DNA of 64,000 bases from an uncultured Bifidobacteriaceae bacterium. Its GTDB lineage: Bacteria; Actinomycetota; Acidimicrobiia; IMCC26256; PALSA-555. The position numbers and the translations under genes are program-made. The stretch lies in NCBI GenBank assembly GCA_964501785.1, contig CAZCUD010000006.1:158084-222083 (forward strand). The letters are read 5' to 3'. Numbering within the stretch: the first letter of the stretch is position 1; the number at the start of each line of letters is the position of its first letter. Below, in pieces: positions 21,490 through 63,175 of this stretch. Below the pieces are notes generated by a model that had not been told where the DNA came from, did not search any database, and was given only the letters and a program-made list of their open reading frames with translations.

Positions 21490-21503
21490 GAGAACCTGTT
21501 CTA
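21490..21503. promoter_or_regulatory. KstR-type operator-like box GAGAACCTGTTCTA abutting the acyl-CoA ligase start codon
   Basis: It matches TnnAACnnGTTnnA at 13 of 14 positions (first T is G). It is an imperfect palindrome lying directly upstream of GTG 21489 on the minus strand. Confidence 0.55.
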
Positions 21504-21774
21504 GCCGAGGGGACTCGCCGTCTGCCCACCCGCCGACCGCGAACCTGGGTGCGCTGCCGTGTACGCCGACCCCGCTCCGTCGACTCGCCTCGCTTCACCG
21601 GCCGAGCCCCTGCTCCCTCGCTTCGCTCGGTCGGCCGCGAGGCGGCCGGGTCTCGACCTGGCGAGGCGAACTGTCTCCTCCGGGGGTCTGCGCCCAGGAC
21701 ATCGCCGGGAGTTCGACTGCGCGCGAGTTGCCATGGCTGCGCAGCACGCGGCATGGCTGACCTGACACGCAGCG

Positions 21775-22677
21775 ATGGAGCTGGTCGACGCGCGCGAGCT
21801 GGTGCGCTCGGGGCGATTTGTCCAGACGAACGAGAAGACTGCCAAGGCCGTCGCTCACGGCGACATCTCGTCGGCGCACACGAAGATCCTTGCCCGCAAG
21901 GCACGCCACGTCGACGACCTGTTCCCCGACTTCGAGGACGCCCTCCTCGATGCCGCCCGCGCCGAGAAGCCGGACGAGTTCCGCGCCATCGCCACCCACT
22001 GGCGCGCCATCGCGGACGACATCCTCGACCGCAGGCCTTCCGACGACCGGTTCGATCGCCGTCACCTGCGCATCTCCGACGTCTTGGACGAGATGACCAG
22101 GATCGACGGCTACATCGACGGCGAGACGGCGGCGCGTCTGCGCAAGATCCTCGACGGGCTCGAGCCGCCCGATCCGGTCGACGGTCCCGAGCCGCCGCGC
22201 GCGCTCGGACAACGCCGCGCCGACGCGCTGACGAAGCTGGTCGGCGGCGAGCGAGCCCCGCGGGTCACGGTCCACGCCGTCGTCGACGCCGAGACGCTCG
22301 CGGGGCGCATGCCCGCTGATCTCACCGCGATGCGCTGCGACCTGCTCGGTGGCGGGACGCTCGACGTGGAGTCGATGCTGCGGATGACGTGCGACTGCTC
22401 GATCGCCCGTGTGCTGATGCGCGGGAAGGGCGAGGTCCTCGACCTGGGCCGATCGACGCCGGTGGTCAGCGATGCGTTGCGCCGAGCCCTGGCCGTGCGC
22501 GACGGCGGCTGCACCGAGCCCGGCTGTGGTGCACCGCCCGAGTGGTGCGACGCCCACCACGTCGTCCACTGGTCTCGAGGCGGATCGACCGAGCTGACCA
22601 ACCTCGAGCTGAAGTGCCGGCGCCACCACGTGGCCGCCCACCGTCGCCGCGGTCCACCGATGGACCTGGCCGCATGA
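21775..22677 (+). CDS. DUF222/HNH endonuclease (13E12-repeat-like), N-terminally truncated or interrupted
   Basis: ORF track. The HNH core is RDGGCTEPGCGAPPEWCDAHHVVHWSRGGSTELTNLELKCRRHH. The same frame continues upstream (21559..21765) and is separated by only one TGA. Confidence 0.8.
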   Translation: MELVDARELVRSGRFVQTNEKTAKAVAHGDISSAHTKILARKARHVDDLFPDFEDALLDAARAEKPDEFRAIATHWRAIADDILDRRPSDDRFDRRHLRISDVLDEMTRIDGYIDGETAARLRKILDGLEPPDPVDGPEPPRALGQRRADALTKLVGGERAPRVTVHAVVDAETLAGRMPADLTAMRCDLLGGGTLDVESMLRMTCDCSIARVLMRGKGEVLDLGRSTPVVSDALRRALAVRDGGCTEPGCGAPPEWCDAHHVVHWSRGGSTELTNLELKCRRHHVAAHRRRGPPMDLAA

Positions 22678-22692
22678 GCCGCGACGCGCCGA

Positions 22693-24387
22693 TCAGCCCG
22701 TCGCGATCCGCTTCGCCCAGCGGTAGTCGGGCTTGCCGACCGGGGTGCGCGGGATGTCGTCGGTGAGGTGCAGCTGACGGGGCACCTTGTAGCCAGCGAT
22801 CTTCGTGCGACAGAACTCCTGGAGCTCCTCGAGCTCGAGCGTCGCGTCGTCGCGAGGCGTGACGATCGCCGCGACCCGCTCCTGGAAGCGCTCGTCGGGC
22901 ACGCCGACGACGACCGCGTCGAACACGTCGGGGTGCGCCTTCAGCGCCGCTTCGACCTCTTCGGGGTACACCTTCTCGCCGCCGGTGTTGATGCACACCG
23001 AGCCGCGCCCGAGCAGCTCGAGCACGCCGTCGGCGCTGATCGTCGCGGAGTCGCCGGGGAGCACCCACCGCTTGCCGTCGGGGTCGACGAGGAACGTCGC
23101 CTTCGTCTTCTCCTCGTCCTTGTAGTAGCCGAGCGGGATGTGCCCGCAGCGCGCCAGCTTGCCGACCTGACCGGACCCCGGCTCGACGGGGCGACCGTCG
23201 TCGTCGAGGACGTTGGTGGTCGGGTTCATCGTGAAGCGCGGGCCGCCCTGCTCGAGGTCGGTCACCGTGCCGGCGTGGCCGGTCTCCGAGGCGCCGAAGC
23301 TGTCCATCACCATCGCGTTGGGGAGCAGCGACTGGAGCTCGGTGCGGATCGCCTTCGAGAGGATCGCGCCGCCCGACCCGACGACGAACACCGACGAGAG
23401 GTCGTAGTCCTCGGCCGGGTTCGCGATCGCGTCGGCGAGCGGGCGGGCCATCGCGTCGCCCACCACCATGATCGAGGTGGCCTGCTCGTCCGCCGCCATC
23501 TTGGCGACGTGCTGGCCGTCGAAGTGGTGATCGCAGCTGAGGACGACGGTGCCGCCGCCGTAGAAGCCGATGAAGCTCGCCCACTGCCCGCCGCCGTGCA
23601 TGACGGGCGCGTTCACGACGTTCACGTTGATCTGGTCGTCGGGCACGACGCGCTCGGCGAGCTCGTCGGGCGTCTCGATCGGGGGCTGGCCGAAGCCTCC
23701 ACCACCGAGGGCGGCGAAGAAGATGTCCTCGGCCCGCCAGAGCACGCCCTTGGGCATGCCGGTCGTGCCGCCCGTGTAGAGGATGTAGAGGTCGTCGGCC
23801 GAGCGGGGCGGGAACCCGCGCTCGGGCGACGCCGCCGCGAGGGCGTCCTCGTAGTCGACCGCGCCGAGCTCGGCGACCGCCTTGGCGGCGGCGTCCGAGT
23901 CGTCGCCGTCGTCGATCACGACGAAGTGGCGCAGCTTGGGGGTGTCGGGCCGCACCTCGGCGACCATGGGTGCGAACGAGCGCTCGAAGACGATCGCGAC
24001 CGAGTCGGAGTTCTCGAGCATGTAGCGCAGCTCGTCGGCGACGTAGCGGAAGTTGACGTTGATGACCGACGCGCGGGCCTTGTAGATGCCGAGCTCGGCC
24101 TCGATCCACTCGACCCGGTTCCACGACAGGATCGCCACGTGGTCGCCTGCACCGACGCCGTGGTCGAGGAGATGGTGGCCGAAGCGGTTGGCTCGCTCGT
24201 CCAGCTCTCGGTACGTGCGGCGCTCGTCCCGGTCGGGGACCCCGCCGTCGGATCGCGCCGGGCAGATCAGGGCGGGGCGCTCGGGCACCGTGTCGACGAC
24301 CACCTCGAACAGGTCGGCGAGGTTGAAGGTCCGTTCGGGGGGCGCCTCGGGGGCCTCGTTGCCGGGCACGGCCGGAGAGTAGAACAT
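22693..24387 (-). CDS. AMP-forming acyl-CoA synthetase (steroid/medium-chain FadD-like)
   Basis: ORF 22693..25287 trimmed to ATG 24387 (MFYSP...TFNLADLFE). It has YILYTGGTTGMPKGVLWRAEDIF and GGEKVYPEEVE. It is a paralog of 43649..45277. Confidence 0.9.
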   Translation of the reverse strand: MFYSPAVPGNEAPEAPPERTFNLADLFEVVVDTVPERPALICPARSDGGVPDRDERRTYRELDERANRFGHHLLDHGVGAGDHVAILSWNRVEWIEAELGIYKARASVINVNFRYVADELRYMLENSDSVAIVFERSFAPMVAEVRPDTPKLRHFVVIDDGDDSDAAAKAVAELGAVDYEDALAAASPERGFPPRSADDLYILYTGGTTGMPKGVLWRAEDIFFAALGGGGFGQPPIETPDELAERVVPDDQINVNVVNAPVMHGGGQWASFIGFYGGGTVVLSCDHHFDGQHVAKMAADEQATSIMVVGDAMARPLADAIANPAEDYDLSSVFVVGSGGAILSKAIRTELQSLLPNAMVMDSFGASETGHAGTVTDLEQGGPRFTMNPTTNVLDDDGRPVEPGSGQVGKLARCGHIPLGYYKDEEKTKATFLVDPDGKRWVLPGDSATISADGVLELLGRGSVCINTGGEKVYPEEVEAALKAHPDVFDAVVVGVPDERFQERVAAIVTPRDDATLELEELQEFCRTKIAGYKVPRQLHLTDDIPRTPVGKPDYRWAKRIATG

Positions 24388-24393
24388 GTTCTC
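24380..24393. promoter_or_regulatory. KstR-type operator-like box TAGAACATGTTCTC in a 9-bp divergent gap
   Basis: It contains the perfect 12-bp palindrome AGAACATGTTCT and fits TnnAACnnGTTnnA at 13/14 positions. It is centred on the ligase ATG (24385-24387) and ends 3 nt before the SDR ATG at 24397. Confidence 0.6.
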
Positions 24394-39438: not shown

Positions 39439-39465
39439 CGGGAGCCCCGAGATGATGGCCCCTAG

Positions 39466-40716
<1,251 letters not shown>

Positions 40717-45277: not shown

Positions 45278-45393
45278 CTTCTCCGCTCTCGGCGCTTCGC
45301 GCCGGGCCGCTCGGGCCCGGGCCTCCTGGTTGCTCCGCAGCGGGCCGTTCGGCCCCGCGGACGTTCGCTTCCGTCGCCGAATCTAGGTGGCGA

Positions 45394-45410
45394 CCTGACG
45401 GGGCGTCAGG
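45394..45410. promoter_or_regulatory. cCTGACG-GGG-CGTCAGg palindrome upstream of acyl-CoA ligase 43649..45277
   Basis: Perfect 7-bp arms with a 3-nt spacer. It is followed by direct CGTCAG repeats. Confidence 0.4.
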
Positions 45411-45447
45411 TCGTCAGATCTCACGTCGTCAGGTCTCAGGTCGTCAG
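45404..45447. repeat. Array of four direct CGTCAG(G) hexamers
   Basis: CGTCAG occurs at 45404, 45412, 45427 and 45442, within cgtcaggtcgtcagatctcacgtcgtcaggtctcaggtcgtcaggtc. The last copy lies in the 3' end of the LLM gene. Confidence 0.6.
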
Positions 45448-46461
45448 GTCGGCGAGGACGCGCAGCGTCTGCTCGTCCTGCCCGCCGACGAGCAGGGTCG
45501 TGACGGGCGTCTTGCGCCACGCCTCGAGACGCTCCGCGATCCGCTCCTTGGGCCCGACCAGGGAGATCTCGTCGGCGAACGCCTCGGGCACCGCGTCGAT
45601 CGCCTCGTCGCGCTTGCCCTCGAAGAAGAGGTCCTGGATGCGGTGCGCCTCCTCCTCGTAGCCCATGCGGGCCATGAGCTCGGTGTGGAAGTTCTTCGTC
45701 TTGGCGCCCATGCCGCCGATGTAGAAGCCCAGCGTCGCCTTCACCGGCCAGAGCCCCTCGCTGACGTCGTCGTGGACGCTGACGAACACGTTGACCGCGA
45801 TCTCGAAGTCGGCCTTCGCGCCGGCCAGCTGCGCCTCGTACACCTCGGGACGGTGGGGTGAGTAGTAGAGGGGCACCCAGCCGTCCGCGATCTCGGTCGC
45901 GAGCGCGACGTTCTTCGGACCTTCGGCGCCGAGGTAGATCGGGATCCGGTTGCGCAACGGATGCGTGATCATCTTCAACGGCTTGCCGAGGCCGACCGCG
46001 TCGTCGCCCGTGTAGGGGAGCGGGTAGTGGGGACCCGGGCTCTGCACGGGTGCCTCGCGCGCGATCGCGTCGCGGATGATCTGGATGTACTCGCGCGTGC
46101 GTGCGAGGGGCTTGGAGAAGGGGCGGCCGTACCAGCCCTCGACCACCTGGGGGCCGCTCACGCCGACCCCGAGGCAGGCGCGCCCCTCCGAGAGGCCGTC
46201 GAGCGTCATCGCGTGCATGGCCATCGTCGTCGGTGACCGGGCAGAGATCTGCGCGATCCCGGTGCAGAGCCGCAGCTTCGTGGTCGCGGCGGCGACGGCC
46301 GCGAGAGGGGAGAACGCGTCGGAGCTCCAGGACTCGCCCGTCCAGATCGAGTCGAAGCCGAGGCTCTCGGCGTGGGTCGCCGACTCGACGAGCTCGCGCG
46401 CCGGGCGCGGCTGCGCGGTCCAGTACCCCATCTGCAAGCCGAGCTTCAGGTCGTGTGCCAC
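45436..46461 (-). CDS. LLM-class F420-dependent oxidoreductase
   Basis: ORF track with a GTG start. Motifs: LGLQMGYW, SIWTGESW, CLGVGVSGPQVVEGWYG, IYLGAEGPKN. Confidence 0.9.
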   Translation of the reverse strand: MAHDLKLGLQMGYWTAQPRPARELVESATHAESLGFDSIWTGESWSSDAFSPLAAVAAATTKLRLCTGIAQISARSPTTMAMHAMTLDGLSEGRACLGVGVSGPQVVEGWYGRPFSKPLARTREYIQIIRDAIAREAPVQSPGPHYPLPYTGDDAVGLGKPLKMITHPLRNRIPIYLGAEGPKNVALATEIADGWVPLYYSPHRPEVYEAQLAGAKADFEIAVNVFVSVHDDVSEGLWPVKATLGFYIGGMGAKTKNFHTELMARMGYEEEAHRIQDLFFEGKRDEAIDAVPEAFADEISLVGPKERIAERLEAWRKTPVTTLLVGGQDEQTLRVLADLTT

Positions 46462-47767: not shown

Positions 47768-47814
47768 ACTCTAGAGCGAGAACCTGGACAAGTGTCCAGA
47801 CAGCGATCTACAGT
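47768..47814. promoter_or_regulatory. Bidirectional leaderless-type promoter region with central palindrome CTGGACA-AG-TGTCCAG
   Basis: TAGAGT (minus strand, 47773-47768) lies 7 nt before GTG 47760. TACAGT (47809-47814) lies 7 nt before GTG 47822. A perfect 7+7 inverted repeat sits at 47784-47799 between them. Confidence 0.5.
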
Positions 47815-50043: not shown

Positions 50044-50861
50044 GCACCGAGATGGATGACGTCGACCTCTCGGGCGGTGCCGCGAAGTACACGATCGCCG
50101 CCGACGACGACACCGCGGCGCGCGAGCACGAGCGCCTCCGCGTGCTCGGGCGTTGGCGCGACCCTTCGACGTTCGCCGCGCTCGAGGCGACGGGGGTCGG
50201 ACCGGGCTGGCGCTGCCTCGAGGTCGGTGCGGGGGCGGGGACCACGTCGGCGTGGCTGGCCGAGCGCGTCGGCGAGTCGGGATCGGTGCTGTCGACCGAC
50301 GTCGACCTGCGCTTCCACGGCCCCGCGGTGGGCAACACCGAGATCCGCGAGCACGACATCACCCGTGACCCGCTGCCGGAAGGCACGTTCGACCTCGTGC
50401 ACGCACGTGCGGTGCTCCAGCACGTCGCGGAGCGCGAGCTCGCGCTCGAGCGGATGATCGCGGCGCTCAAGCCCGGCGGGTGGATCGTCGTCGAGGAAGC
50501 CGACATGCGCGCCTTCGAGGCGCAGCCGCTCCCCGAGCCCCTGGCGACGCTCCACCAGGTCATGGCCTTCGGCGCGGCGGCCCAGGAGTACCGCGAGCCC
50601 AGCTTCGGCACGCGGCTGCTCCGCCTGTTCCAGGAGCACGGGCTCACCGAGGTCACCGCCACCGGGCTGGTCGAGACCATGCGCGCGGGAGAGGACAGCG
50701 GCGAGTGGTGGTTCCTCGCCGTCGAGCACGTCCGCGACCGCATCGTCGATGCCGGCGTCATGCCCGCCGACGACTTCGACGCCGCGCTCGCGATCGCCCG
50801 CACGCCCGGCTTCATGATGCTCGGCCCGATCTCGATCCAGGTCGTCGGGCGCAAGCCGTGA
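50040..50861 (+). CDS. Class I SAM-dependent methyltransferase
   Basis: Tail of ORF 48906..50861, starting at GTG 50040 (GTGA overlap; alternative ATG 50052). It has motif I LEVGAGAGTTS and motif post-II FDLVHARAVLQH. Confidence 0.85.
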   Translation: MSTEMDDVDLSGGAAKYTIAADDDTAAREHERLRVLGRWRDPSTFAALEATGVGPGWRCLEVGAGAGTTSAWLAERVGESGSVLSTDVDLRFHGPAVGNTEIREHDITRDPLPEGTFDLVHARAVLQHVAERELALERMIAALKPGGWIVVEEADMRAFEAQPLPEPLATLHQVMAFGAAAQEYREPSFGTRLLRLFQEHGLTEVTATGLVETMRAGEDSGEWWFLAVEHVRDRIVDAGVMPADDFDAALAIARTPGFMMLGPISIQVVGRKP

Positions 50862-51463
50862 GCGCGGCGCGCCCGGCAGCTCCCGTCGTCACCCGCCGGG
50901 TGCTCCGCTCGGACGCCGTCGCGACGCGCCGGCGGATCATCGAGAGCGCGGTCGAGCTCGCGCGCGACCGACCCATGGCCGAGCTGACGATGCGCGACAT
51001 CGCCCGGACCGCCGAGGTGTCGGTCGCGACCGCGTACACGTACTTCTCGTCGAAGGAGCACGTGTACGCCGAGGCCTACGTCGACGGGGTCGAGACGCTG
51101 ACCGAGAGCCTGCGCGCTCGCCCGCCGACGGGTGCGACGGCGGCCGACCGGGTCGCCGCGGTGCTCCGACGGGCCGTGAAGGGCGCGGCCGCGACCGGCG
51201 ACGTCGTGCAGGCGACCGCGATCGCACTCGCGTCGTCCGACCCCGCGGTCGCGCCGCTCCGCCCGGTCGCCGACGCGGCCTTCGCCGAGTGGATGGCGAT
51301 CGCGCTCGACGGTGCGGCGATCGCCGACCACGACGAGGTCGTGAAGCTGCTCCAGCTCACGATGTTCGCGTCGTTCGTCGCGGTCGCCCACGGCCGGCAG
51401 ACCATCGCCGAGAGCGGCCGCCTGCTCGACCTCGCGGTCCGCCGCCTCGTCGTCGAGCGCTGA
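50858..51463 (+). CDS. TetR/AcrR-family transcriptional regulator
   Basis: Tail of ORF 50480..51463, starting at GTG 50858 (GTGA overlap). HTH: TMRDIARTAEVSVATAYTYFSSKEHV. Confidence 0.85.
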   Translation: MSAARPAAPVVTRRVLRSDAVATRRRIIESAVELARDRPMAELTMRDIARTAEVSVATAYTYFSSKEHVYAEAYVDGVETLTESLRARPPTGATAADRVAAVLRRAVKGAAATGDVVQATAIALASSDPAVAPLRPVADAAFAEWMAIALDGAAIADHDEVVKLLQLTMFASFVAVAHGRQTIAESGRLLDLAVRRLVVER

Positions 51464-53824: not shown

Positions 53825-54484
53825 TCAGCTCGGGCGCGTCCCGTCGCGGGGTGCGATGAACACGATGTCGGCCTCGGCGAGCCGCTCGCCGTCGCAGTCG
53901 GCGGTGCCCCACACGAAGATCTTGCGGCCCTCGACGCGCTCGACGCCGGCCTCGTAGTCGATCCGGCGGCCGAGCGGCGTCGGTCGCAGCATCCGCACCG
54001 TGAGGGTGCCGGTGTACCCGGCGATGCCCGACAGCGTCTGCGCAGAGCCCATCAGGTCGTCGAATGCCGCCGCGACGAAGCCGCCGTGCACGTGGCCCGC
54101 GGGCCCCTCGTAGGCCGGTGAGTACGTCGCCGACCCGATCGCGCGGTCCTCGGTGAGGTCCCACTGCACCGGCGCGGCGAGCGGGTTGGAGCGGCCGCTG
54201 ATGCCGCTGCGCTCCAGCAGGGCGCCGTCGTCGCCGCCGGCCGACCCCAGGCCGCCCTTGGCGTGCAGCGATGGCATCCGCTCGAGCGCGTCGTTGACGA
54301 GGTCGACCTCCTCGCGCAGCGCGTCGACCCGAGCGAGGTCGTCGACCTCGTGGGAGTCGAGATGCGCGGTGAGCTCGATGAGCCGCTTCACCGAACGCAC
54401 CAGCGCGTGCTTGGTCGCACGCGGCCCGTCCTCGACCGGATCGTGCGGGTCGTACGTCGTGTGGGCATCGGGTGGCAGCGTCAC
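53825..54484 (-). CDS. PaaI-family hotdog thioesterase (paralog)
   Basis: ORF track with a GTG start. Motifs: GHVHGGFVAAAFDDLMG...GTLTVRMLRPTP...GRKIFVWG. Confidence 0.8.
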   Translation of the reverse strand: MTLPPDAHTTYDPHDPVEDGPRATKHALVRSVKRLIELTAHLDSHEVDDLARVDALREEVDLVNDALERMPSLHAKGGLGSAGGDDGALLERSGISGRSNPLAAPVQWDLTEDRAIGSATYSPAYEGPAGHVHGGFVAAAFDDLMGSAQTLSGIAGYTGTLTVRMLRPTPLGRRIDYEAGVERVEGRKIFVWGTADCDGERLAEADIVFIAPRDGTRPS

Positions 54485-54546
54485 GCCGCCGAGCCTACGG
54501 CCGAAGACGCGCGCAACCGATCGGGTGCCTCGAGCGTCTTCTTCGT

Positions 54547-54744
54547 GTGAGACGCGATGGTGTGCGTCGGTTCGGAGACCTGCTGCTCGGGCTGCTCTTC
54601 GCGGTGACCCTCGGGCTCGGGGTCTACGCGACCGCGGGTGGGGTGGACTCCCCGCGGGACGATGCTCCGACGCCGAGCACCTTCCCGATCGAACCCGTCA
54701 CGCCTGCCTCGTCGGCGGACCGACCGGCGCCGGTGGCGCACTGA
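54547..54744 (+). CDS. Possible small single-pass membrane protein
   Basis: Part of ORF 54472..54744, starting at GTG 54547. VRRDGVRRFGDLLLGLLFAVTLGLGVYATAGG has one hydrophobic helix and is followed by a Pro-rich tail. GC3 is high. I recognise no family. Confidence 0.3.
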   Translation: MRRDGVRRFGDLLLGLLFAVTLGLGVYATAGGVDSPRDDAPTPSTFPIEPVTPASSADRPAPVAH

Positions 54745-54762
54745 GCGGTCGGGGCGGCGCGG

Positions 54763-55098
54763 TCAACCCGTGCGGTAGATCTCGTCGTAGTTGCCCCACT
54801 CGATCTCGCCGCCCTCGGCCAGGTCGCGCAGCCGCTGCGCCCACTCCTTGGTCTCGGGCCGATCGTTGTTCTTCGCGGCCTCGTCGACCGCAGAGACGTC
54901 GGGGTCGACGACGCCGAACTCGGCCACGATCACGTAGCGGCCGGGGTTCTCCCGGTCGGCCAGCACGTGCGAGCCCATGTAGCCCATCACGTCGGCCTCG
55001 GCCTGGAGCTCGTCCCACTTCGCGGACATCTCGATGAGCGTGTCGGGGTCGTCGCACCGAAACGTCATCGTCTGCGTGAAGTTGACGTTGCGCTTCAC
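54763..55098 (-). CDS. Small alpha+beta (ABM/Dabb-like) hypothetical protein
   Basis: ORF 54763..55188 trimmed to GTG 55098, preceded by GGAGGGAGGGGG (GTGA overlap with the upstream stop). About 111 aa: FTQTMTFRCDDPDTLIEMSAKWDELQ...RYVIVAEF. Confidence 0.6.
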   Translation of the reverse strand: MKRNVNFTQTMTFRCDDPDTLIEMSAKWDELQAEADVMGYMGSHVLADRENPGRYVIVAEFGVVDPDVSAVDEAAKNNDRPETKEWAQRLRDLAEGGEIEWGNYDEIYRTG

Positions 55099-56210
55099 GT
55101 GCTCGCCCCCTCCCTCTCCGCAGCGAAGCGTTGCTGGATCTCCGACATGCCCTCCAGGTCGAACGCGCCCGGCGACCCGATCTCGCACGCGGCCGGCGAC
55201 TTCTCGGGCACATGCAGCATCTCACGGACCTCCTCGACCGACCGATGCACGTGGTCGTCGTAGCCGATGTCGAACAGGTCCGTATCGCACTGCATGCTGA
55301 CGATCTTGCCCCGCCGGATCGCGTCGGCGATGCGCACGTGCATCCCCGCGCCCTGGGCGTGCCGCTCGCGCGCGTCGCGGTCGAAGAAGCCGGTGCTCTC
55401 GATGTACCCGGTGTCGAAGAGTCCGATCAGCGTCGCGAGCCAGGCGAACCCCTTGGGGTCGGGGTCGGCGCGCCCGATGAACGCGAACACCTCGATCTCG
55501 CCCCGCAGGTTGGTGCCGTAGTCGGCGAGCACGTGCACGTAGTCGTGTTGCGCCAGGTACTTCGGCGCGCCGCCGGGTGCGCCGGGCAGCTCGAAGCCCC
55601 GACCGTCGTACATCTCGACCACTCGGCGACCCAGCGTCCCCTCGGGCAGCTCGCGGTACGACGCCCAGCGCTCTGCGAGCGCGGGGTCGAGCTCTGGTGG
55701 TTGGAACGCGGCTGCTTGTCGCCGTTGGGCGGCGACGCCGGCGTCGCCGGTGTCGCGCACGTGCTCCTCGAAGCCGCTGCGCTGGAGGTCCATCCAGGCG
55801 AGGCCGTACGCGCCCTGCGCGTAGCGGCGCGCCACGCGCACGAACTTGTCCTCGATCCCCAGCGCCTGGGCGTACTTCGCCACCCGCGCCGCGACCTCCA
55901 CGGGGATCGGCCGCAGGATCATCTCGGCGAGCACCATGTGGTGCACGATCCGCTGGCGGTGGCCCTGGTCGCGATGGGCGAGCGCTTCGGCCAGCCCGTC
56001 GGGGGAGAGCGGCTCGAGCGAGTGGTAGTCGACCTCGTATCCCGTCAGGGAGCTCGCGATGGCACCGAGCAGCTGGGCCTGTACCTCGGTGAGCCCGTCG
56101 GCAGGGGCGACCGCGGTCGCGATGCCGCGTGCGGTGAGCAGGACCTCCTCGCGATCGATGGGGTCGGGCCCGAGGTCGGTGGGCGGTGGGATCGAGCTCA
56201 CGGCCCCCAT
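55095..56210 (-). CDS. Coq4-like metal-binding protein with N-terminal extension
   Basis: ORF 55095..56822 trimmed to ATG 56210. It contains HDYVHVLADYGTNLRGE, i.e. HDxxH-x11-E, the Coq4-family zinc-ligand signature. Confidence 0.7.
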   Translation of the reverse strand: MGAVSSIPPPTDLGPDPIDREEVLLTARGIATAVAPADGLTEVQAQLLGAIASSLTGYEVDYHSLEPLSPDGLAEALAHRDQGHRQRIVHHMVLAEMILRPIPVEVAARVAKYAQALGIEDKFVRVARRYAQGAYGLAWMDLQRSGFEEHVRDTGDAGVAAQRRQAAAFQPPELDPALAERWASYRELPEGTLGRRVVEMYDGRGFELPGAPGGAPKYLAQHDYVHVLADYGTNLRGEIEVFAFIGRADPDPKGFAWLATLIGLFDTGYIESTGFFDRDARERHAQGAGMHVRIADAIRRGKIVSMQCDTDLFDIGYDDHVHRSVEEVREMLHVPEKSPAACEIGSPGAFDLEGMSEIQQRFAAEREGAST

Positions 56211-56272
56211 CTTCGCGAACCCGGCCGTCCGGCACCCGCCGTACCCGGGCGGATCGATCCGGCGTCCGGGCG

Positions 56273-57001
56273 TCAGGTCTCGAACCGGGGCGAGGGCACG
56301 TCCTGCACGCCGAAGCGGGCCGAGATCAGCTGCACCCGGCCGTGATCGTCCCGTTCGAGGAGCTCGGCCGCCGCGTCGGCCACCGCGTCGGCGGGCATGA
56401 AGCTCGCGCCGGTCTGCCGGCCGGCCTCGACCCGAGCGCCCGCGACCATGGGCGTGTCGATCCCCGAGGGGCAGATGGCGTGCAGCCGCACCCCCTGGCG
56501 CCACAGCTGCGGGGCCACGCTGCGCACGAACCCCACCACCGCGTGCTTCGTCGCGGCGTAGATCGGGTCGCCCCCGTACGGGATCAGTCCCGCGAGCGAC
56601 GCGGTCACCGCGATCGAGCCGCCGCCTCGCTCGATCATCAGCGGCGCGAGCGCATGGACGCCGAGCACGACGCCGTCGAGGTTGACCCCGACCATGGCGC
56701 GGTAGCGGGCGACGGGCGTGTCGAGGAAGGGCAGCGCGTCGGACGCGGCGAGGATCCCCGCGTTCAGGTGAGCGAGCTCGACGCCCTCGTCGGCGCGCAG
56801 CTCGTCGGCGAGGGCGGCCCACCCGGTGGCGTCGGAGACGTCGAGGTGCACGAACCGCCCCCCGACCTCCTCGGCGACCCGCCGACCGCCCGTGTCGTCG
56901 ATGTCGACGACCACGACCGATGCGCCGTCGCGTGCGAGCCGTCGGGCACTCGCCTCGCCGACGCCGGACGCGCCGCCGGTCACCACCGCGACCCGGCTCA
57001 A
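56273..57001 (-). CDS. SDR-family oxidoreductase
   Basis: ORF track. TTG 57001 overlaps the upstream stop (TTGA). Motifs: VTGGASGVG, YAATK. Confidence 0.9.
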   Translation of the reverse strand: MSRVAVVTGGASGVGEASARRLARDGASVVVVDIDDTGGRRVAEEVGGRFVHLDVSDATGWAALADELRADEGVELAHLNAGILAASDALPFLDTPVARYRAMVGVNLDGVVLGVHALAPLMIERGGGSIAVTASLAGLIPYGGDPIYAATKHAVVGFVRSVAPQLWRQGVRLHAICPSGIDTPMVAGARVEAGRQTGASFMPADAVADAAAELLERDDHGRVQLISARFGVQDVPSPRFET

Positions 57002-57783
57002 CGGTCAGGCCGGTTCCGTGAGAGGTGCGCGCCGTTGTCGGCGAGCACGAGCTGGCCGGTCACGCCGCGCCCGAGGTCGGACGCGAGCGCGACCACGAGG
57101 CGCGCGAGGTCGTCGGGCTCGCACATCCGCCGGAGGGGGATCGATTCGGTGAGCGCGGCCACGTACTCGTCGGTCAGCGCGTCCGCCACCGTCGGGGTCA
57201 GCGTCGTGCCGGGCGCCACCGCGTTCACCCGGATGCCGTGCGGGCCGAGCTCGGCCGCGAGGGTCGTGGTGAGGTGGTTGACGGCGGCCTTCGCGGCGCC
57301 GTACGCGGCGAGCCCGAGCGCCGGACGGGTCGACTCACCCGAGCTCACGTTGAGGATCACGCCGCCGCGAGCCTGTTGGACCATGTTCCGGGCCTCGGCG
57401 CGACAGCACGCCGCGGTGAGCACGAGGTTCTGCTCGATGACGTCTCGCACGTACGCGTCGTCCTGCTCGACGGCGGGCGTGGGGGTGCGTCCGGCGAGGC
57501 TGCCCACGTTGTTGACGGCGACGTCGAGTCGGCCGAGGTCCTGGCGCGCCGATCCGACGACGCGCTCGGCCTCGCCTGCTTCGCGCAGGTCGGCGACCTG
57601 GGGGACGACGAACGTGCCGTGGGTCTTCAGGTCCGCGACCGCGTCGTCGAGCGCCGCTCGGTCGCGGTCGACGATCGCGACGTCGCACCCTGCCCGCACC
57701 AGCCACCCCGCGATCGCGCGGCCGATGCCCATCCCGGCGCCGGTGACGATCGCCCCCTTCCCCTGGAGGCCCAGGTCGATCAC
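56998..57783 (-). CDS. SDR-family oxidoreductase
   Basis: ORF track with a GTG start. Motifs: VTGAGMGIG, NNVG, YGAAK. Confidence 0.9.
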   Translation of the reverse strand: MIDLGLQGKGAIVTGAGMGIGRAIAGWLVRAGCDVAIVDRDRAALDDAVADLKTHGTFVVPQVADLREAGEAERVVGSARQDLGRLDVAVNNVGSLAGRTPTPAVEQDDAYVRDVIEQNLVLTAACCRAEARNMVQQARGGVILNVSSGESTRPALGLAAYGAAKAAVNHLTTTLAAELGPHGIRVNAVAPGTTLTPTVADALTDEYVAALTESIPLRRMCEPDDLARLVVALASDLGRGVTGQLVLADNGAHLSRNRPDR

Positions 57784-57793
57784 GGAGCCTCGA

Positions 57794-58753
57794 TCACGGC
57801 TCGATCGTCACCTTGATGGCACCGGCGGCCCGATCACCGGCCACCCGGAACGCCTCGGCGGCGTCGTCGAGCGCGAAGCGGTGCGTGATCAGCGTCTCGG
57901 CGATCGCCGGCTCGGCCGCCAGGAGGGCGGCGGCGTCACCGAGGTCGGTGCCGTGCTCGTGCGCGCCGTACGTGAACGACCACTGGAAGCCGAGCTCCTT
58001 CATCAGCGCCGGCACGCCGGGGATCGCGACGGGCGTCCAGTGCGTGCTGAGGAACACGATGCGACCGCCGGGCGCGCACAGCTCCACCGCGGTCGCGAGC
58101 GCGGACTCGGTGCCGGCGCACTCGAGCACCACGTCGTACTCACCTTCCATGGGCACCGCACCGAGGCGCTCACCGGAGACGCGCTGACGCTCGTGGCGCG
58201 CGACGAGTCCGACCTCCGCCGCCCGGGGCCGCGCCGCGGCGACGGCGGCCAGGCCGATCCCGCCTGCCCCGACGACGCCGACGCGCTCGCCACCCGAGAG
58301 CCCGGCGATGCGCACCGCGTGCGTGGCGACGCCCAGCGGCTCGACCAGGCACGCCTGCTCCGGACCGAGGCCGTCGGGGAGCGCGACGAGCGAGGAGCGG
58401 CGCACCGCGACCGACTCGGCCATGCCGCCGTCGGCCCCGATGCCGAGCACGCGCTGGGCGCCGGTGCGGCAGCGGTGCCCGAACCCCGACTCGCACTGGT
58501 CGCACGTCCCGCAGGGCTGGTTGGGGTCGATCGCGACCGGGGTGCCGTCGTCGAGCATGCCCGCGACCTCGTGGCCGAGCACGTGCGGCAGCGGGCCGTA
58601 CTCGATCAGGTGGAGGTCCGAGCCACAGATGCTCGCCGAGCGCACCTGCACGACGACCCGCTCGGCGTCGTCGGGGTCGCCCGCGGATTCGGGTGTCGGG
58701 TCGGGAGCCTCGACGACCTCGATGCCGCGCTCGGTGTTGCGCACCGCCCGCAT
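57794..58753 (-). CDS. Zinc-dependent alcohol dehydrogenase (MDR family)
   Basis: ORF track with ATG 58753. Motifs: ICGSDLH, GHEVAG, CGTCDQCESGFGHRC, GAGGIG. Confidence 0.9.
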   Translation of the reverse strand: MRAVRNTERGIEVVEAPDPTPESAGDPDDAERVVVQVRSASICGSDLHLIEYGPLPHVLGHEVAGMLDDGTPVAIDPNQPCGTCDQCESGFGHRCRTGAQRVLGIGADGGMAESVAVRRSSLVALPDGLGPEQACLVEPLGVATHAVRIAGLSGGERVGVVGAGGIGLAAVAAARPRAAEVGLVARHERQRVSGERLGAVPMEGEYDVVLECAGTESALATAVELCAPGGRIVFLSTHWTPVAIPGVPALMKELGFQWSFTYGAHEHGTDLGDAAALLAAEPAIAETLITHRFALDDAAEAFRVAGDRAAGAIKVTIEP

Positions 58754-58762
58754 CCGCGGACC

Positions 58763-60172
58763 TCAGCCGCCCGTGCGCTCGCCGCCGGTGATCTCGGACG
58801 GCTCGATCCCGAGGTAGCGCTCGAGGTTGCGGTGCAGGCTCTCGATCCGCATCTCCTCGCGCGACAGCGTGAGGTGGGTGAACCCGGGCTGGTGCAGGCC
58901 GCGCTGGGCGCGCAGCAGGTTCTCGACGTCCTGGTTGAACACCCCGCCGAGCTGGGCGTTCTCGGCTTCCATCGTCAGGTCGACGGGACGCTCGCGAGGT
59001 GCACCCGGTGCGACGCGCGAGAAGTAGAAGAGGTCCATGAGGCAGTCGTCGGGCGTGGCGCCGGGGCGGGTCCGCAGCAGGGCCAGGCTCTCGACCAGGA
59101 ACACCGGCGAGATGTTGGGGAAGCAGTTGTACTGGTGCAGGTCGGTGACCTGCGCGTCGGTGAAGTCGTCGAGGTCGACGCCTTCGGACCGCTGACGCTC
59201 GCGGATCAGACGCGCGAGGAGCGTGCGCACCGACTCGTCGGGCTCGCGCTCGGGGACCGGGCCCGGATCGTCCTGGCTGGGGCGCCCGACCCGCTCGCCT
59301 TGCGTCGCGCAGAACGACTCCCAGATCTGCTGGTCGGTCGCGCCGTCGCGCAGACGCGGGCTGGGGATCCCATAGGGCTGGTTGAGGCGACCGTGGCGCT
59401 CCCAGACCTCCTGGGGTCCGTTGACGTCGTTGGTCGACGGGATCATCTGCCGGTGGATGCCCTGCACGTGGTAGGTCTCGCTGAACGCGTCGATGCCGGT
59501 CTTCCAGTTGCACGGCAACGGGACGGTGACGAGGGCGCGGCAGGCGTACTCGTCGGGGCGGAGCCACGCGGTCTCGGCCGGCACCGGCGCGAGGAACTCC
59601 GCGAGCGGCTCCGCGTCGAGATCGAGGTTGACGAAGACCATGGGTCCCCACGTGTCGACCTGCACCGACCGCAGCGCGTAGTCGTCGTTCTTGACGACGC
59701 CGAACCCCTTGCGGGACGGGATCTCGCGCAGACGTCCGTCGAGGTCCCAGCACCACCGGTGGTAGACGCAGCGGATCTCGGTGCGGCCAGTGCCCGAGCC
59801 GTTGCACAGCTCGTTGCCACGGTGGAGGCACACGTTCTGGAACGCGCGCAGGCGCCCGTCTTCACCGCGCACGATCAGCACCGACAACGCGCCGCAGGTG
59901 TGCTCGAACCAGTCTCCCGGGTCGCGCACGTGATCGACGCTGCACGCCACCTGCCACACGTGGGGCCACAGCCGCTCGGCCTCGAGCGCGGCCCAGTCGG
60001 GCGAGGTGTACCGCGAGGCGGGCACCAGCACCGGGGTGCGCTGCGTGCTCACCGCCCCGATCGTGGAGCCGACCGGGGCCTCGTCGGTGACCTCGCCGGC
60101 GTACGCCGGGCCGCCGGGCCGGGCGTCCCGGATCCGTGCGGCGCTTCCCGGGGTCTGGGTCACGGGGTGCAC
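58763..60172 (-). CDS. Rieske [2Fe-2S] aromatic-ring-hydroxylating oxygenase alpha subunit-like protein
   Basis: ORF track. It has the Rieske motif CLHRGNELC...CVYHRWCW and a catalytic domain with ETYHVQGIH. The N-terminal start (GTG 60172) is uncertain. Confidence 0.9.
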   Translation of the reverse strand: MHPVTQTPGSAARIRDARPGGPAYAGEVTDEAPVGSTIGAVSTQRTPVLVPASRYTSPDWAALEAERLWPHVWQVACSVDHVRDPGDWFEHTCGALSVLIVRGEDGRLRAFQNVCLHRGNELCNGSGTGRTEIRCVYHRWCWDLDGRLREIPSRKGFGVVKNDDYALRSVQVDTWGPMVFVNLDLDAEPLAEFLAPVPAETAWLRPDEYACRALVTVPLPCNWKTGIDAFSETYHVQGIHRQMIPSTNDVNGPQEVWERHGRLNQPYGIPSPRLRDGATDQQIWESFCATQGERVGRPSQDDPGPVPEREPDESVRTLLARLIRERQRSEGVDLDDFTDAQVTDLHQYNCFPNISPVFLVESLALLRTRPGATPDDCLMDLFYFSRVAPGAPRERPVDLTMEAENAQLGGVFNQDVENLLRAQRGLHQPGFTHLTLSREEMRIESLHRNLERYLGIEPSEITGGERTGG

Positions 60173-60185
60173 CCTACGGCGCGAT

Positions 60186-60200
60186 CTGACGCCTCGTCAG
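60186..60200. promoter_or_regulatory. CTGACG-CCT-CGTCAG palindrome next to KstR-like box
   Basis: Perfect 6-bp arms with a 3-nt spacer. It lies 3 nt upstream of the 60204 box. Confidence 0.4.
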
Positions 60201-60202
60201 GC

Positions 60203-60231
60203 TTGAAACACGTTCCAGTCGCGGTCAGAAT
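60203..60231 (+). promoter_or_regulatory. Putative promoter of binding-protein gene 1 (TTGAAA-17 nt-CAGAAT)
   Basis: A -35-like TTGAAA (60203-60208), a 17-nt spacer and CAGAAT (60226-60231). The architecture is duplicated upstream of copy 2. An alternative -10-like TACAGT lies at 60247-60252. Confidence 0.35.
60204..60217. promoter_or_regulatory. KstR-type operator-like box TGAAACACGTTCCA
   Basis: It fits TnnAACnnGTTnnA at 14/14 positions. It overlaps the -35-like TTGAAA in the divergent region between the Rieske operon and the binding-protein gene. Confidence 0.6.
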
Positions 60232-60308
60232 CCCCCGGCCCGGTCCTACAGTCCGGGGCACCACGCAACGGAATCCGAGCCCGACCGGGCCGGTGACAAG
60301 GGGGGAAC

Positions 60309-61655
60309 GTGCAACGCACTCGCTGGGTGGCGCTGATCGCCACATTCGTGCTCTCGATGTCGGCGATGACCGCGGTCGCGTCTGCCGGGGGCGGTGGCGG
60401 CGGCGGCGGCGGTGAGCAGCCCGAGGCCACCGAGATCGGCATCACGGCAGACGAGATCCGCGTCGCGGTGATCGCCGACGTCGAGAACCCGCTCGCTCCG
60501 GGCCTGTTCGAGGGCTCGAAGAACGGTGTCGAGGGCTGGGCCGAGTACGTCAACAAGAACGGCGGCCTCGCCGGGCGTGAGGTCGTGGTCGACTTCATCG
60601 ACTCGCACCTGTCCGCCGACGACGCCCGCAACGCGTTCATCACCGCGTGCGCAGAGAACTTCGCGGTGATCGGTGCATCCGCGCTGTTCCTCAACAACGT
60701 CGACGACATCGAGTCGTGCGTCGACCAGGCCGGCAACCCGACGGGCCTGCCCGACCTGGCGGTGGTGACCACCGAGGTCGTCCAGCAGTGCTCGCCGACG
60801 ACCTACGCGATCAACCCGCCGCAGATCCTCTGCGACACGCGTGAGGAGAGCCCGCAGACGTACCAGGGCAACGCGGGGCGGTACTACTACTACGAGAAGG
60901 AGTTCGGGAAGGACCTCCACGGCGCCTACCTGTACTCGGCCGACATCCGGGCGGCGAACAACGCCAACCGGGCGACCATGGAGCCGATGCAGAAGCTCGG
61001 CATCAAGGCCGACGACGAGGTCGACATCTCCGCTCGTGCACCGCAGAGCGAGTACACGCCGGTCGTCCAGTCGATGAAGGACAACGAGTCGAACTACGCC
61101 CAGAGCGGCGCGTCGTTCAACACCACGGTGTCGCTGCGCAAGGAGGCCAAGCTCCAGGGCCTCACCGACCCCGACATCATCTGGGACTGCACGCTCCAGT
61201 GCTACGACCAGAACCTCATCGAGCAGGGCGGCGCCGACGTCGAGGGCCAGTACGTGTCGCTGCTGTTCCTGCCCTTCGAGGAGGCGAGCACCAACAAGGA
61301 GCTCAAGGCCTTCGTCAACACCGTGGGCAAGGACAACGTCGACGGCTTCGCGGCGCAGGCCTGGGCCTCGGGCGTGCTGTTCCAGCAGGCAGTGGAGCAG
61401 ATCGTCTCGGACCAGGGCGTCAACGGCGTCAACCGGCAGGCCCTCTTCGGTGCGCTCGACAGCATCACCGACTTCGACGCCAACGGCATGATCGGCACGG
61501 TCAACATCGCAGAGCGCAAGACCTCGCCCTGCTACGTGCTGCTCCAGGTCAAGGACGGCGAGTTCGTCCGGGTGACCCCGTCGAAGAAGGGCACGTTCAA
61601 CTGCGACAAGAAGAACGTGCAGCAGGTCAAGCTCGACCTCGAGACGGGCAACTGA
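60309..61655 (+). CDS. ABC transporter substrate-binding protein, Liv/HAAT (type I PBP) family, copy 1
   Basis: ORF track with GTG after AAGGGGGG. It has a hydrophobic N-terminus without a lipobox Cys, a poly-Gly linker (GGGGGGGG), and the PBP1 pattern GITADEIRVAVIADV...NKNGGLAGREVVVDFIDS. Confidence 0.9.
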   Translation: MQRTRWVALIATFVLSMSAMTAVASAGGGGGGGGGEQPEATEIGITADEIRVAVIADVENPLAPGLFEGSKNGVEGWAEYVNKNGGLAGREVVVDFIDSHLSADDARNAFITACAENFAVIGASALFLNNVDDIESCVDQAGNPTGLPDLAVVTTEVVQQCSPTTYAINPPQILCDTREESPQTYQGNAGRYYYYEKEFGKDLHGAYLYSADIRAANNANRATMEPMQKLGIKADDEVDISARAPQSEYTPVVQSMKDNESNYAQSGASFNTTVSLRKEAKLQGLTDPDIIWDCTLQCYDQNLIEQGGADVEGQYVSLLFLPFEEASTNKELKAFVNTVGKDNVDGFAAQAWASGVLFQQAVEQIVSDQGVNGVNRQALFGALDSITDFDANGMIGTVNIAERKTSPCYVLLQVKDGEFVRVTPSKKGTFNCDKKNVQQVKLDLETGN

Positions 61656-61673: not shown

Positions 61674-61702
61674 GGGGTGCCGCGGCGACGCCGCGGCACC
61701 CC
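61674..61702 (+). terminator. Hairpin terminator after binding-protein gene 1
   Basis: GGGGTGCCGCGG-CGACG-CCGCGGCACCCC has a 12-bp stem. It lies 19 nt after the stop at 61655 and is followed by GTTCGCGT. Confidence 0.65.
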
Positions 61703-61773: not shown

Positions 61774-61802
61774 TTGAAACGTGTTCCACCCGACGACAGG
61801 AT
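61774..61802 (+). promoter_or_regulatory. Putative promoter of binding-protein gene 2 (TTGAAA-17 nt-CAGGAT)
   Basis: TTGAAA (61774-61779), a 17-nt spacer and CAGGAT (61797-61802). This is the same layout as upstream of copy 1. Confidence 0.35.
61775..61788. promoter_or_regulatory. KstR-type operator-like box TGAAACGTGTTCCA
   Basis: It fits TnnAACnnGTTnnA at 14/14 positions. It holds the same position relative to TTGAAA and the -10-like hexamer as the box at 60204. Confidence 0.6.
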
Positions 61803-61828
61803 GACCCGAGCCGACAAGGGGGGGACCA

Positions 61829-63175
61829 GTGGCACGACTTCGCGCTCCGAAGAAGGTGGCGCTGCTCGCGGCCGCACTCGTGACGATCGCATCGATCGGG
61901 ACGACGGCGGTGGCGGGCGCGCAAGGTGGTGGCGGGGGCGGTGACTCGCTCGAAGCCACCGAAGTGGGCATCACTGCCGACGAGATCCGCATCGCGGTGA
62001 TCGCGGACGTCGAGAACCCGCTCCAGCCCGGCCTCTTCCAGGGTGCGCCGGACGCGATCAACGGGTTCGCCGAGTTCATCAACGACAACGGTGGGCTCGC
62101 GGGCCGCGAGCTCGTCGTCGACTTCCTCGACTCGCACCTGTCGGCGGACGACACGCGCAACGCGATCGTGGAGGCGTGCGAGAACAACTTCGCGATCGTC
62201 GGGACGGCTGCGCTGTTCCTCAACAACACCGACGACATGGTGAACTGCGCGAACTTGGAAGGGACCGCGGTCGGGATCCCCGACTTCCCGGTGGTGACGA
62301 CCGAGCCGGTGCACCAGTGCTCGCCGGTCTCGCACCCGATCAACCCGCCGACGCTCGACTGCGCCACGATCGACGACCACCCGCAGACCTACCGCGGGAA
62401 CATCGGGGCGACCGACTACTACCTGAGCCAGCACAAGGACCTGTCCGGCGTGTTCCTCTACCCGTCCGACCTCAAGTCGGCCAAGGACTCGCAGGTCCCG
62501 AACTTCACCGCTCAGGAGGAGTCGGGCATCAAGCTCGACGCCGAGTACGACGTCTCCGCGCGAGCGCAGCAGAGCGCGTACACGCCGATCGCCCAGCAGA
62601 TGAAGGCCGACGGCACGACCTACTGGCGCAGCGGGCTGGCGTTCAGCTCGACGATCACGATGCGCAAGGAGGCGACGCTCCAGGGCGTCACCGACGTCGA
62701 GGTCTGGGACTGCTCGCTCCAGTGCTACAACCGCCAGCTCATCGAGCAGGGTGGGAGCGACGTCGAGGACCAGTACGTGTACATGAACTTCGTCCCCTTC
62801 TTCACCGAGGCCAACGTCAACAAGATGACGAAGAGCTTCGTGAAGTACGTCGGCAAGGACAAGGTCGACGGCTTCAGCGCCCAGGCCTGGTCTGCGGGCG
62901 TGTACTTCCGGGATGCGGTGAACGCCATCGTCGAGGCAGACGGCAACAACGGGCTCACGCGTGAGGCGCTCCTCGAGGCCGCGAACAACATCAACGACTT
63001 CACCGCCGACGGGCTGATGGCGCCGACGGACGTGGGTGACCGCGTCCCCGGGGCCTGCTACGCCGTCACGCAGGTCCAGGACGGCGAGTTCAAGCGCGTG
63101 TACCCCAAGAAGAAGGGCACGTTCGACTGCAAGAGCAAGCTCGTCACGCTCGAGCTCGACTTGATCACGGGCTGA
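61829..63175 (+). CDS. ABC transporter substrate-binding protein, Liv/HAAT family, copy 2 (tandem paralog, also 448 aa)
   Basis: ORF track with GTG after AAGGGGGGG. It is collinear with copy 1 (GITADEIRIAVIADV...NDNGGLAGRELVVDFLDS). All 8 Cys positions are shared. Confidence 0.9.
   Translation: MARLRAPKKVALLAAALVTIASIGTTAVAGAQGGGGGGDSLEATEVGITADEIRIAVIADVENPLQPGLFQGAPDAINGFAEFINDNGGLAGRELVVDFLDSHLSADDTRNAIVEACENNFAIVGTAALFLNNTDDMVNCANLEGTAVGIPDFPVVTTEPVHQCSPVSHPINPPTLDCATIDDHPQTYRGNIGATDYYLSQHKDLSGVFLYPSDLKSAKDSQVPNFTAQEESGIKLDAEYDVSARAQQSAYTPIAQQMKADGTTYWRSGLAFSSTITMRKEATLQGVTDVEVWDCSLQCYNRQLIEQGGSDVEDQYVYMNFVPFFTEANVNKMTKSFVKYVGKDKVDGFSAQAWSAGVYFRDAVNAIVEADGNNGLTREALLEAANNINDFTADGLMAPTDVGDRVPGACYAVTQVQDGEFKRVYPKKKGTFDCKSKLVTLELDLITG

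Follow-up and report, generated by a model that had tools for sequence, protein, structure and literature searches.

Two putative back-to-back promoters, each overlapped by its own palindrome, between a Rieske oxygenase operon and a Liv-type importer of an uncultured Acidimicrobiia bacterium

Are a catabolic operon and an importer that diverge from one short intergenic region controlled jointly, or does each answer to signals of its own? This question is raised by a stretch of 64,000 nucleotides from contig CAZCUD010000006.1 (assembly GCA_964501785.1) of an uncultured member of the Acidimicrobiia, which in its entirety is termed the window here and has a G+C content of 71.5%. Its minus strand carries an operon headed by a gene for a Rieske ring-hydroxylating oxygenase, its plus strand an ATP-binding cassette (ABC) importer of the Liv type, and 145 bp separate the start codons of the Rieske gene (60163) and of the gene for the first substrate-binding protein, SBP1 (60309). 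Two different palindromes stand side by side in this interval, namely, CTGACGcctCGTCAG at 60186 to 60200 (box 2, or operator O2) and TGAAACACGTTCCA at 60204 to 60217 (box 1, or operator O1), which are separated by the trinucleotide gct at 60201 to 60203. An earlier account made from the DNA letters alone, the sequence-only reading, had labeled box 1 as KstR-like and had proposed that both palindromes regulate a single divergon. A sequence check located both palindromes, the hexamers TTGAAA and CAGAAT, and their 17-nt spacer at the same positions. As regards their function, the comparisons described below make it probable that the region consists of two back-to-back, outward-facing promoters, each of which is overlapped by a palindromic operator of its own.

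Box 1, read on the plus strand, is a palindrome with imperfect symmetry (TGnAAC-NN-GTTnCA). In the SBP1 promoter, it overlaps the -35 element (TTGAAA, 60203 to 60208) and extends over the first 9 nt of the spacer; the -10 element of this promoter is CAGAAT (60226 to 60231), and transcription is predicted to start near 60238. A promoter scan of positions 60100 to 60400 retrieved TTGAAA-17-CAGAAT as the sole sigma-70-like site (9/12 matches; 0.0 in shuffled sequences). The exact pattern TnnAACnnGTTnnA is present in two copies in the window, compared to 0.06 expected. The second copy, which the sequence-only reading had missed, lies inside the plus-strand gene row between the paralogous genes for SBP1 and SBP2. 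Here, a second promoter with its operator occupies positions 61774 to 61802 of the plus strand, comprising TTGAAA (61774 to 61779), box 1' (TGAAACGTGTTCCA, 61775 to 61788), which starts inside this hexamer, and the -10 element CAGGAT (61797 to 61802), located 8 nt after the box. This copy, TTGAAA-17-CAGGAT, scored under the threshold of the promoter scan.

We then compared the window with related loci, labeled L001, L002, and so forth; all orthologous loci come from uncultured Acidimicrobiia. Box 1 matched 23 times in 449 kb of these loci, and 21 of the matches were upstream of binding-protein genes. The binding-protein promoters at which the box is kept come from about 20 related Acidimicrobiia loci. 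It was found upstream of the binding-protein gene in every related locus that has one, except L046, and in L001, L002, L004, L009, and L010 it precedes the second binding-protein gene as well. The SBP2-type site, with the spacer cccgacga and the -10 element CAGGAT, was kept in L001, L002, and L004. Box 1 stayed with the binding-protein gene even where a short-chain dehydrogenase/reductase (SDR) gene or other genes part that gene from the Rieske gene. Since the box follows the binding-protein gene across loci, we assigned it to the plus-strand transporter promoter and not to the Rieske operon.

The alignment of 23 oriented sites (21 from related loci and 2 from the window) revealed a shared geometry, TTG(A/C)AAC-NN-GTTCCA followed after 8 nt by cAGAnT, and the overlap of the box with a -35 element at 17-nt spacing, which the sequence-only reading had pointed out, is thus conserved at all 23 sites. 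The information content is about 0 over the 28 nt upstream of the box and reaches its maximum from the T at position -1 of the box onwards; this T and the following TG were invariant (23/23), as were A2 and T6 of the -10 hexamer, which always lies 8 nt past the box. The right half of the box, GTTCCA, is placed in the promoter spacer and is as conserved as the -35 element (22 to 23 of the 23 sites), while the central dinucleotide (AC, GT, GC, CG, CT, or TT) and the 8 nt that follow the box vary. The spacer of sigma-70-type promoters is not constrained in sequence. In L047, the binding protein of which is 56% identical, the box is the perfect palindrome TGAAACACGTTTCA. This pattern has the appearance of the footprint of a dimeric DNA-binding protein centered near position -27 of the predicted start, and such a position implies repression by occlusion.

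A GC-rich hairpin with a perfect 14-bp stem and without a T tract was identified past the SBP1 stop codon (61674 to 61702, plus strand; -46.6 kcal/mol, z = -4.5), and a terminator scan found no T-tract terminator. This hairpin is likely a terminator or attenuator and may set the ratio of binding protein to permease. Because of this strong hairpin, the second promoter and operator probably drive SBP2, the permease, and the ATPase separately. Translation of SBP1 is preceded by the Shine-Dalgarno sequence AAGGGGGGAA (60298 to 60307, plus strand), which is kept, in the form A(A/C)AGGGGGGA, ahead of all SBP start codons; the leaders of the binding-protein genes otherwise differ in length and sequence. 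This Shine-Dalgarno sequence is unusually long and invariant (60298 to 60307 and 61817 to 61826 in the window, and in all SBP loci).

The Rieske promoter was recognized by cross-locus comparison. The Rieske gene start reads TAnnnT, 6 to 8 nt, GTG in the window and likewise in each of the 16 orthologous loci shown, with TAGGGT, TAAGGT, TAACGT, TACCAT, TAGCAT, and TACGAT as the hexamers observed. A Shine-Dalgarno reading of TAnnnT is ruled out by the variable middle of the hexamer and by forms such as TACCAT. The pattern fits the actinobacterial -10 element of a leaderless gene, and the start codon was therefore revised to GTG at 60163, with the -10 element TAGGGT at 60176 to 60171 of the minus strand, 7 nt before this codon. 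Judged from this layout, the Rieske transcript is probably leaderless. Box 2, CTGACG-CCT-CGTCAG (60186 to 60200), would span approximately positions -36 to -22 of this promoter; its distal half, CTGACG, doubles as a -35-like hexamer, and the gap between the box and the -10 element is 9 nt. In the window, L001, L002, and L011, where the Rieske gene is directly back-to-back with the binding-protein gene, the stems of box 2 are invariant and all three loop bases differ (CCT versus GGC). Both palindromes are thus kept in orthologous intergenic regions, and one of the outcomes that the sequence-only reading had named as a refutation, conservation of neither palindrome, is not observed.

Box 2 is not confined to the Rieske promoter. 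Its core, TGACG-N3-CGTCA, occurs three times in the window (39468, 45396, and 60187), compared to 0.23 expected, and all three copies are in intergenic promoter regions. The class of 6+3+6 palindromes is itself not rare, with 69 members in the window, and a search for box 2 with up to two mismatches retrieved 4 matches in the window versus 11.7 expected, so that nothing was gained. The second copy, CTGACGCCCCGTCAG (45409 to 45395), is followed after 9 nt by the -10 element TAGATT (45385 to 45380) upstream of an acyl-CoA synthetase (FadD) gene, the whole promoter extending from 45380 to 45409 on the minus strand. The promoter of the FadD orthologue in L013 reads CTGACGACCCGTCAG, 9 nt, TAGATT, 8 nt, ATG. 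The third, box 2-like copy, CTGACGACCCGTCAC (39467 to 39481), abuts the -10 element TAGACT (39461 to 39466) between divergent 4HBT thioesterase and thiolase genes (39461 to 39481, plus strand). At the orthologous promoters of L001, L002, L011, and L013, 8 to 10 nt separate box 2 from TAGNNT. Box 2 therewith presents itself as a candidate for a second operator type that is common to several catabolic promoters.

The proposal that the two palindromes jointly regulate one divergon was not borne out. Because box 1 tracks the binding-protein gene and box 2 recurs at FadD promoters with the same 9-nt gap to a TAGNNT -10 element (window and L013), the two palindromes are better assigned to two promoters, box 1 to that of the transporter and box 2 to the leaderless Rieske promoter. 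The -35 elements of these promoters are back to back at a distance of 2 bp, and their predicted starts are about 75 bp apart. The center of box 1 is at approximately -47 relative to the Rieske promoter and that of box 2 at approximately -45 relative to the transporter promoter; cross-effects of either box on the opposite promoter are conceivable, and nothing in the data requires them.

We propose the following mechanism. The plus-strand promoter (TTGAAA, 17-nt spacer, CAGAAT) would drive the first binding-protein gene of the Liv-type importer, and a dimeric repressor on box 1 (TGAAAC-AC-GTTCCA) would keep RNA polymerase off until a lipid-like substrate, or the CoA ester of this substrate, releases it. 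With promoter and operator repeated before SBP2, both transporter units would answer to one regulator. The minus-strand promoter would give rise to a leaderless mRNA for the Rieske oxygenase, a zinc-dependent alcohol dehydrogenase (Zn-ADH), two SDRs, two unassigned proteins, and a thioesterase. Another regulator, distinct from the first, would bind box 2 and also control at least the acyl-CoA synthetase and thiolase promoters of the same island. In its most specific form, which we advance tentatively and consider rather doubtful, uptake and catabolism would be wired to two sensors 3 bp apart, with a PsrA-like TetR gating the importer and an undescribed box 2 regulator running a dispersed catabolic regulon (Rieske operon, acyl-CoA synthetase, and thiolase).

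Which protein might bind box 1? Metagenome DNA was scanned for the box together with its -10 element, resulting in at least 120 matches. Approximately 107 of those listed were chance matches in low-GC DNA, and the 13 high-GC matches were examined; 10 of the 13 belonged to binding-protein genes or closely duplicated a locus of this kind. In three of the ten (L077, L097, and L123), a gene for a TetR protein of 216 to 219 amino acids adjoins box 1 and the binding-protein gene. This TetR has 638 homologues, several of which are labeled Acidimicrobiia, and the homologues in L170, L172, and L174 show the same arrangement beside box 1 and a binding-protein gene. In the latter three loci, one side of the cluster encodes DUF202, DUF202, the binding protein, a 724-aa permease, and a fused ATPase, and the other side encodes TetR, (P450), acyl-CoA dehydrogenase, an unknown protein, UGSC, UGSC, ADH, SDR, SDR, and EthD; the binding-protein promoter reads TTGAAACGCGTTCTC, 8 nt, CAGAAT. 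The TetR-linked clusters are related to the window, with identities of about 60% for the ADH, 58 to 62% for SDR1, 48 to 51% for SDR2, 54 to 56% for SBP2, and 63 to 66% for the permease. The suggestion of a TetR-type regulator in the sequence-only reading gains plausibility for box 1 from these six sister clusters.

The linked TetR points to a particular branch of this family. Its best match in the PDB is 2FBQ, which is PsrA (PMC13599538), and its recognition helix, NSSALHYHFGSREGL, is similar to that of PsrA, NLAAVNYHFGSKKAL, and unlike that of KstR, VAVGTLYRYFPSK. The PsrA consensus, C/GAAAC-N2-4-GTTTG/C (PMC13104628), is matched by box 1 (GAAAC-AC-GTTCC) at 9 of 10 positions and by the L047 box (GAAAC-AC-GTTTC) at 10 of 10. 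On these grounds, the binder of box 1 is most likely a TetR-family repressor of the PsrA/CecR-like branch that would be encoded outside the window. The more distant binding-protein homologues in L041 and L044 also have adjacent TetR genes, with unrelated palindromes and no box 1; they show only that this transporter family tends to be controlled by TetR proteins.

A number of observations weigh against the assignments made above. (i) The PsrA-like TetR was not found in the 64-kb window, nor did the searched Rieske-type loci, L040, L046, and L047 have one within 6 to 10 kb of the box; likewise, the 10 kb downstream of the transporter in L040, a locus of the L002 genome, contained no regulator. 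(ii) The promoter of the TetR gene itself in the linked clusters is devoid of box 1, i.e., the usual signature of autoregulation is missing, and the distant TetR homologues (L175 to L178, 44 to 47% identical) have no box 1 nearby. (iii) The -10 hexamers of the transporter promoters start with C or A and not with T. (iv) Box 2 at the Rieske promoter was detected only in four fairly close genomes, the region being 79% identical, and is missing from other Rieske orthologues. No regulator gene was found near box 2 in any locus examined.

The only transcription factor encoded in the window is another TetR protein (50858 to 51463), a distant relative of KstR (E of approximately 1e-7 to 3MNL and 5CW8). 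Its operon encodes a MetE-like (methionine-synthase-like) protein, a KshA-like protein, a methyltransferase, and the TetR and is headed by the dyad CTGGACA-AG-TGTCCAG (47784 to 47799), followed by 9 nt, TACAGT, 7 nt, and GTG (to 47824). This dyad is probably the TetR's own operator. L005, L013, and L019 lack the entire MetE-like/TetR block at the syntenic position. Because of the palindrome at its own operon and its absence from these three loci, this TetR is an unlikely binder of box 1 or box 2. The outer bases of its dyad, TGGA....TCCA, resemble box 1, and the inner bases are swapped.

Two other explanations of box 1 have to be weighed. Under the label KstR-like in the sequence-only reading, a true KstR orthologue would bind the box, and the divergon would belong to a steroid-catabolic KstR regulon, which we regard as unlikely. 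The full KstR palindrome is TAGAAC-N2-GTTCTA, with the core TnnAACnnGTTnnA (Kendall et al. 2007, PMC1995591). Both copies of box 1 in the window agree with all 8 specified positions of this core with 0 mismatches, and the gel-shift-verified KstR sites include the half-sites TGAAAC and GTTCCA (PMC1995591). The match of 14 out of 14 positions that had been claimed for box 1 is nevertheless overstated, since only 8 of the 14 positions of this degenerate core are specified; agreement with the full palindrome is 9/12, as opposed to 9/10 for PsrA, and position 2, an A in the KstR palindrome, is an invariant G at 23 of 23 box 1 sites. In favor of KstR, the window carries steroid-type genes, contains 10 one-mismatch matches to the KstR core (2.0 expected), and has near-canonical KstR-type boxes at two FadD gene starts, TAGAACAGGTTCTC at 21490 to 21503, which abuts the GTG start, and GAGAACATGTTCTA at 24380 to 24393, each with one mismatch to the core. 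Furthermore, the window's single TetR aligns over its full length, albeit weakly, with Mycobacterium tuberculosis KstR (E of approximately 1e-7), but it lies in the operon with the different palindrome described above and is absent from L005, L013, and L019. The TetR linked to box 1 in the six sister clusters has a PsrA-like and not a KstR-like helix, and no kstD, hsaC, or mce4 gene was found in the 64-kb window. The KstR-like label is thus not specific. It is very improbable, on the other hand, that box 1 is a promoter element only, an unusually conserved -35 element plus spacer to which no regulator binds. Its left half does coincide with the -35 element TTGAAA/TTGCAA, and nearly all sites deviate from symmetry in the same way (TGAAAC versus GTTCCA), which is what a promoter constraint would give; but the spacer half is conserved to the same degree as the -35 element around a variable center, the box is a dyad that becomes perfect in L047, and a TetR gene colocalizes with it in six clusters.

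For box 2, the alternative is that it is no operator but a chance or inherited palindrome that supplies the -35-like CTGACG, or else a dispersed extragenic hairpin repeat. The abundance of the 6+3+6 class, the closeness of the four genomes that share the Rieske-promoter copy, its absence from most Rieske orthologues, and the tandem CTGACGA repeats by the copy at 45395, which suggest repeat dynamics, all speak for this possibility; in addition, a literature search for box 2 returned coincidental matches only and no counterpart. We still judge it quite unlikely, as the three exact core copies are all at promoters, the 9-nt gap to TAGNNT is repeated at two unrelated promoters of the window and kept within 8 to 10 nt at orthologues, and the stems are fixed while the loop is free. 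Since box 2 is upstream of both predicted starts, it would be present in neither mRNA as a hairpin. The interpretation of two promoters with one operator each remains the one we favor.

Several further candidates were considered and rejected. An extracytoplasmic function (ECF) sigma promoter (GGAAC/TGAAAC -35, ~16 to 17 nt, CGT-type -10) has the wrong spacing, with a gap of 2 nt between AAC and GTT in box 1; on the minus strand, GGAAC and CGTC are 20 nt apart, and there is no conservation upstream of box 1. A LacI-family operator (TGnAAnCGnTTnCA) needs a central CG, while the center of box 1 varies and C6 and G9 are invariant. A LexA/Cheo box requires an N4 center, and a MerR-type spacer site is at odds with the normal spacer of 17 nt. 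RNA hairpins were dismissed for both palindromes, box 1 like box 2 lying upstream of both predicted transcription starts. No Rfam family was found in the window.

Two side observations concern the promoters of this gene set. Directly upstream of the FadD box 2 are four tandem CTGACGA-like direct repeats (45404 to 45450, minus strand), which overlap the stop codon of a gene for a luciferase-like monooxygenase. In L003, L006, L007, and L018, just upstream of position 6001 (e.g., 5975 to 6000 in L006), an SDR gene diverges from the Rieske gene, and the leaderless promoters of both share a CCTAGG palindrome that reads TAGGCT and TAGGGT on opposite strands, so that the -10 elements overlap; the start codons are about 25 nt apart.

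The genes flanking the control region were classified using Pfam, which supported the Rieske, ADH, SDR, and importer assignments of the sequence-only reading. The Rieske gene (58763 to 60163, minus strand; Rieske and Ring_hydroxyl_A) encodes an alpha-type protein of 466 amino acids with its revised start; its relatives in the PDB are biphenyl dioxygenase and carnitine monooxygenase (E of approximately 1e-22). The remainder of the operon (53825 to 58753, minus strand), the gene order of which is kept in L001 to L021, encodes the Zn-ADH (57794 to 58753), the first SDR (56998 to 57783), the second SDR (56273 to 57001), a protein without Pfam assignment (55222 to 56235), a weak ABM/EthD-like protein (54763 to 55221), and a 4HBT thioesterase (53825 to 54484). 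Two of the earlier labels were less well founded: the protein that had been called Coq4-like has no Pfam support, and the ABM match is sub-threshold (E = 0.015), the counterpart in L040 being annotated as EthD. The plus strand encodes two Peripla_BP_6 binding proteins, SBP1 (60309 to 61655) and SBP2 (61829 to 63175), and a fused Liv-type permease that begins at 63220 and runs off the window (64000). The complete transporter operon in L040 comprises SBP, SBP, the 724-aa permease, and the ATPase.

On the whole, the window has the character of a catabolic island for lipid or steroid-like compounds and contains genes for acyl-CoA synthetases, an acyl-CoA dehydrogenase, enoyl-CoA hydratases, thiolases, P450s, and luciferase-like monooxygenases, as well as the steroid-type genes for a KshA_C-type Rieske protein, a ChsH2-type DUF35 protein, and an Ltp2-like thiolase. 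Amid the island, beside one FadD gene, is a DUF222/HNH endonuclease gene (21766 to 22677), of a type often tied to mobile DNA. In L046 (1 to 10000), a binding-protein homologue with 68% identity is found in a different cluster, without box 1. This cluster contains meta-cleavage-type genes (hydrolase, FAA hydrolase, acetaldehyde dehydrogenase, and HMGL-like aldolase), a gene for a 759-aa sulfatase, and an extradiol-dioxygenase-like gene, a content that may hint at the substrate class.

Taken together, the data chart the regulation of a catabolic island that is conserved in uncultured Acidimicrobiia, for which they propose promoters and start codons, two operator motifs, and a family of candidate regulators. 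Both motifs can be used to trace regulons genome-wide, with TGnAACnnGTTnCA and CTGACGnnnCGTCAG as search forms, and the genes of such regulons would help to guess the substrate. If the proposal of two sensors is correct, box 2 would represent a new operator/regulator pair without counterpart in the searchable literature, and the tight juxtaposition of the boxes could let the two regulators interact. The study also calls for caution, in that a match to the degenerate KstR core does not suffice for linking a site with KstR or with steroid metabolism.

The arrangement can be compared with several known systems. The KstR operators of Mycobacterium and Rhodococcus share with box 1 the 14-bp dyad, the AAC-NN-GTT core, and the overlap of promoter elements, and they are often located between divergent lipid or steroid catabolic operons; they differ in that position 2 of box 1 is an invariant G and that box 1 is linked to a TetR of another subfamily and precedes a Liv-type transporter and not Mce4. 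PsrA, a TetR-family repressor, is responsive to long-chain fatty acids, and its operators in Pseudomonas resemble box 1 in the GAAAC half-site with a 2-nt center, the promoter overlap with occlusion as the expected mode of action, and the lipid/acyl-CoA catabolic setting. In contrast, the similarity of the linked TetR to PsrA is weak (E = 7.8e-8) and mainly restricted to the N-terminal 100 residues, the host is a member of the Acidimicrobiia and not a proteobacterium, the target is the promoter of an ABC importer and not fadBA or rpoS, and no autoregulatory site was seen here.

As in tetR/tetA and other TetR-family divergons, two outward promoters would be placed within about 75 bp, with operators over the -35 element and the spacer, a layout that implies induction through the release of a repressor. 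Unlike in these divergons, the two palindromes are unrelated, so that two regulators are implied, and neither regulator gene forms part of the divergon. The Rieske promoter corresponds in its layout (TANNNT, 6 to 8 nt, start codon, no Shine-Dalgarno sequence) to the leaderless promoters of actinobacteria, in comparison with which there is nothing unusual about it; the same layout is also seen at the L013 FadD, the window MetE-like operon, and the L006 SDR promoters. This kind of switch is well known, and the arrangement would not surprise a specialist.

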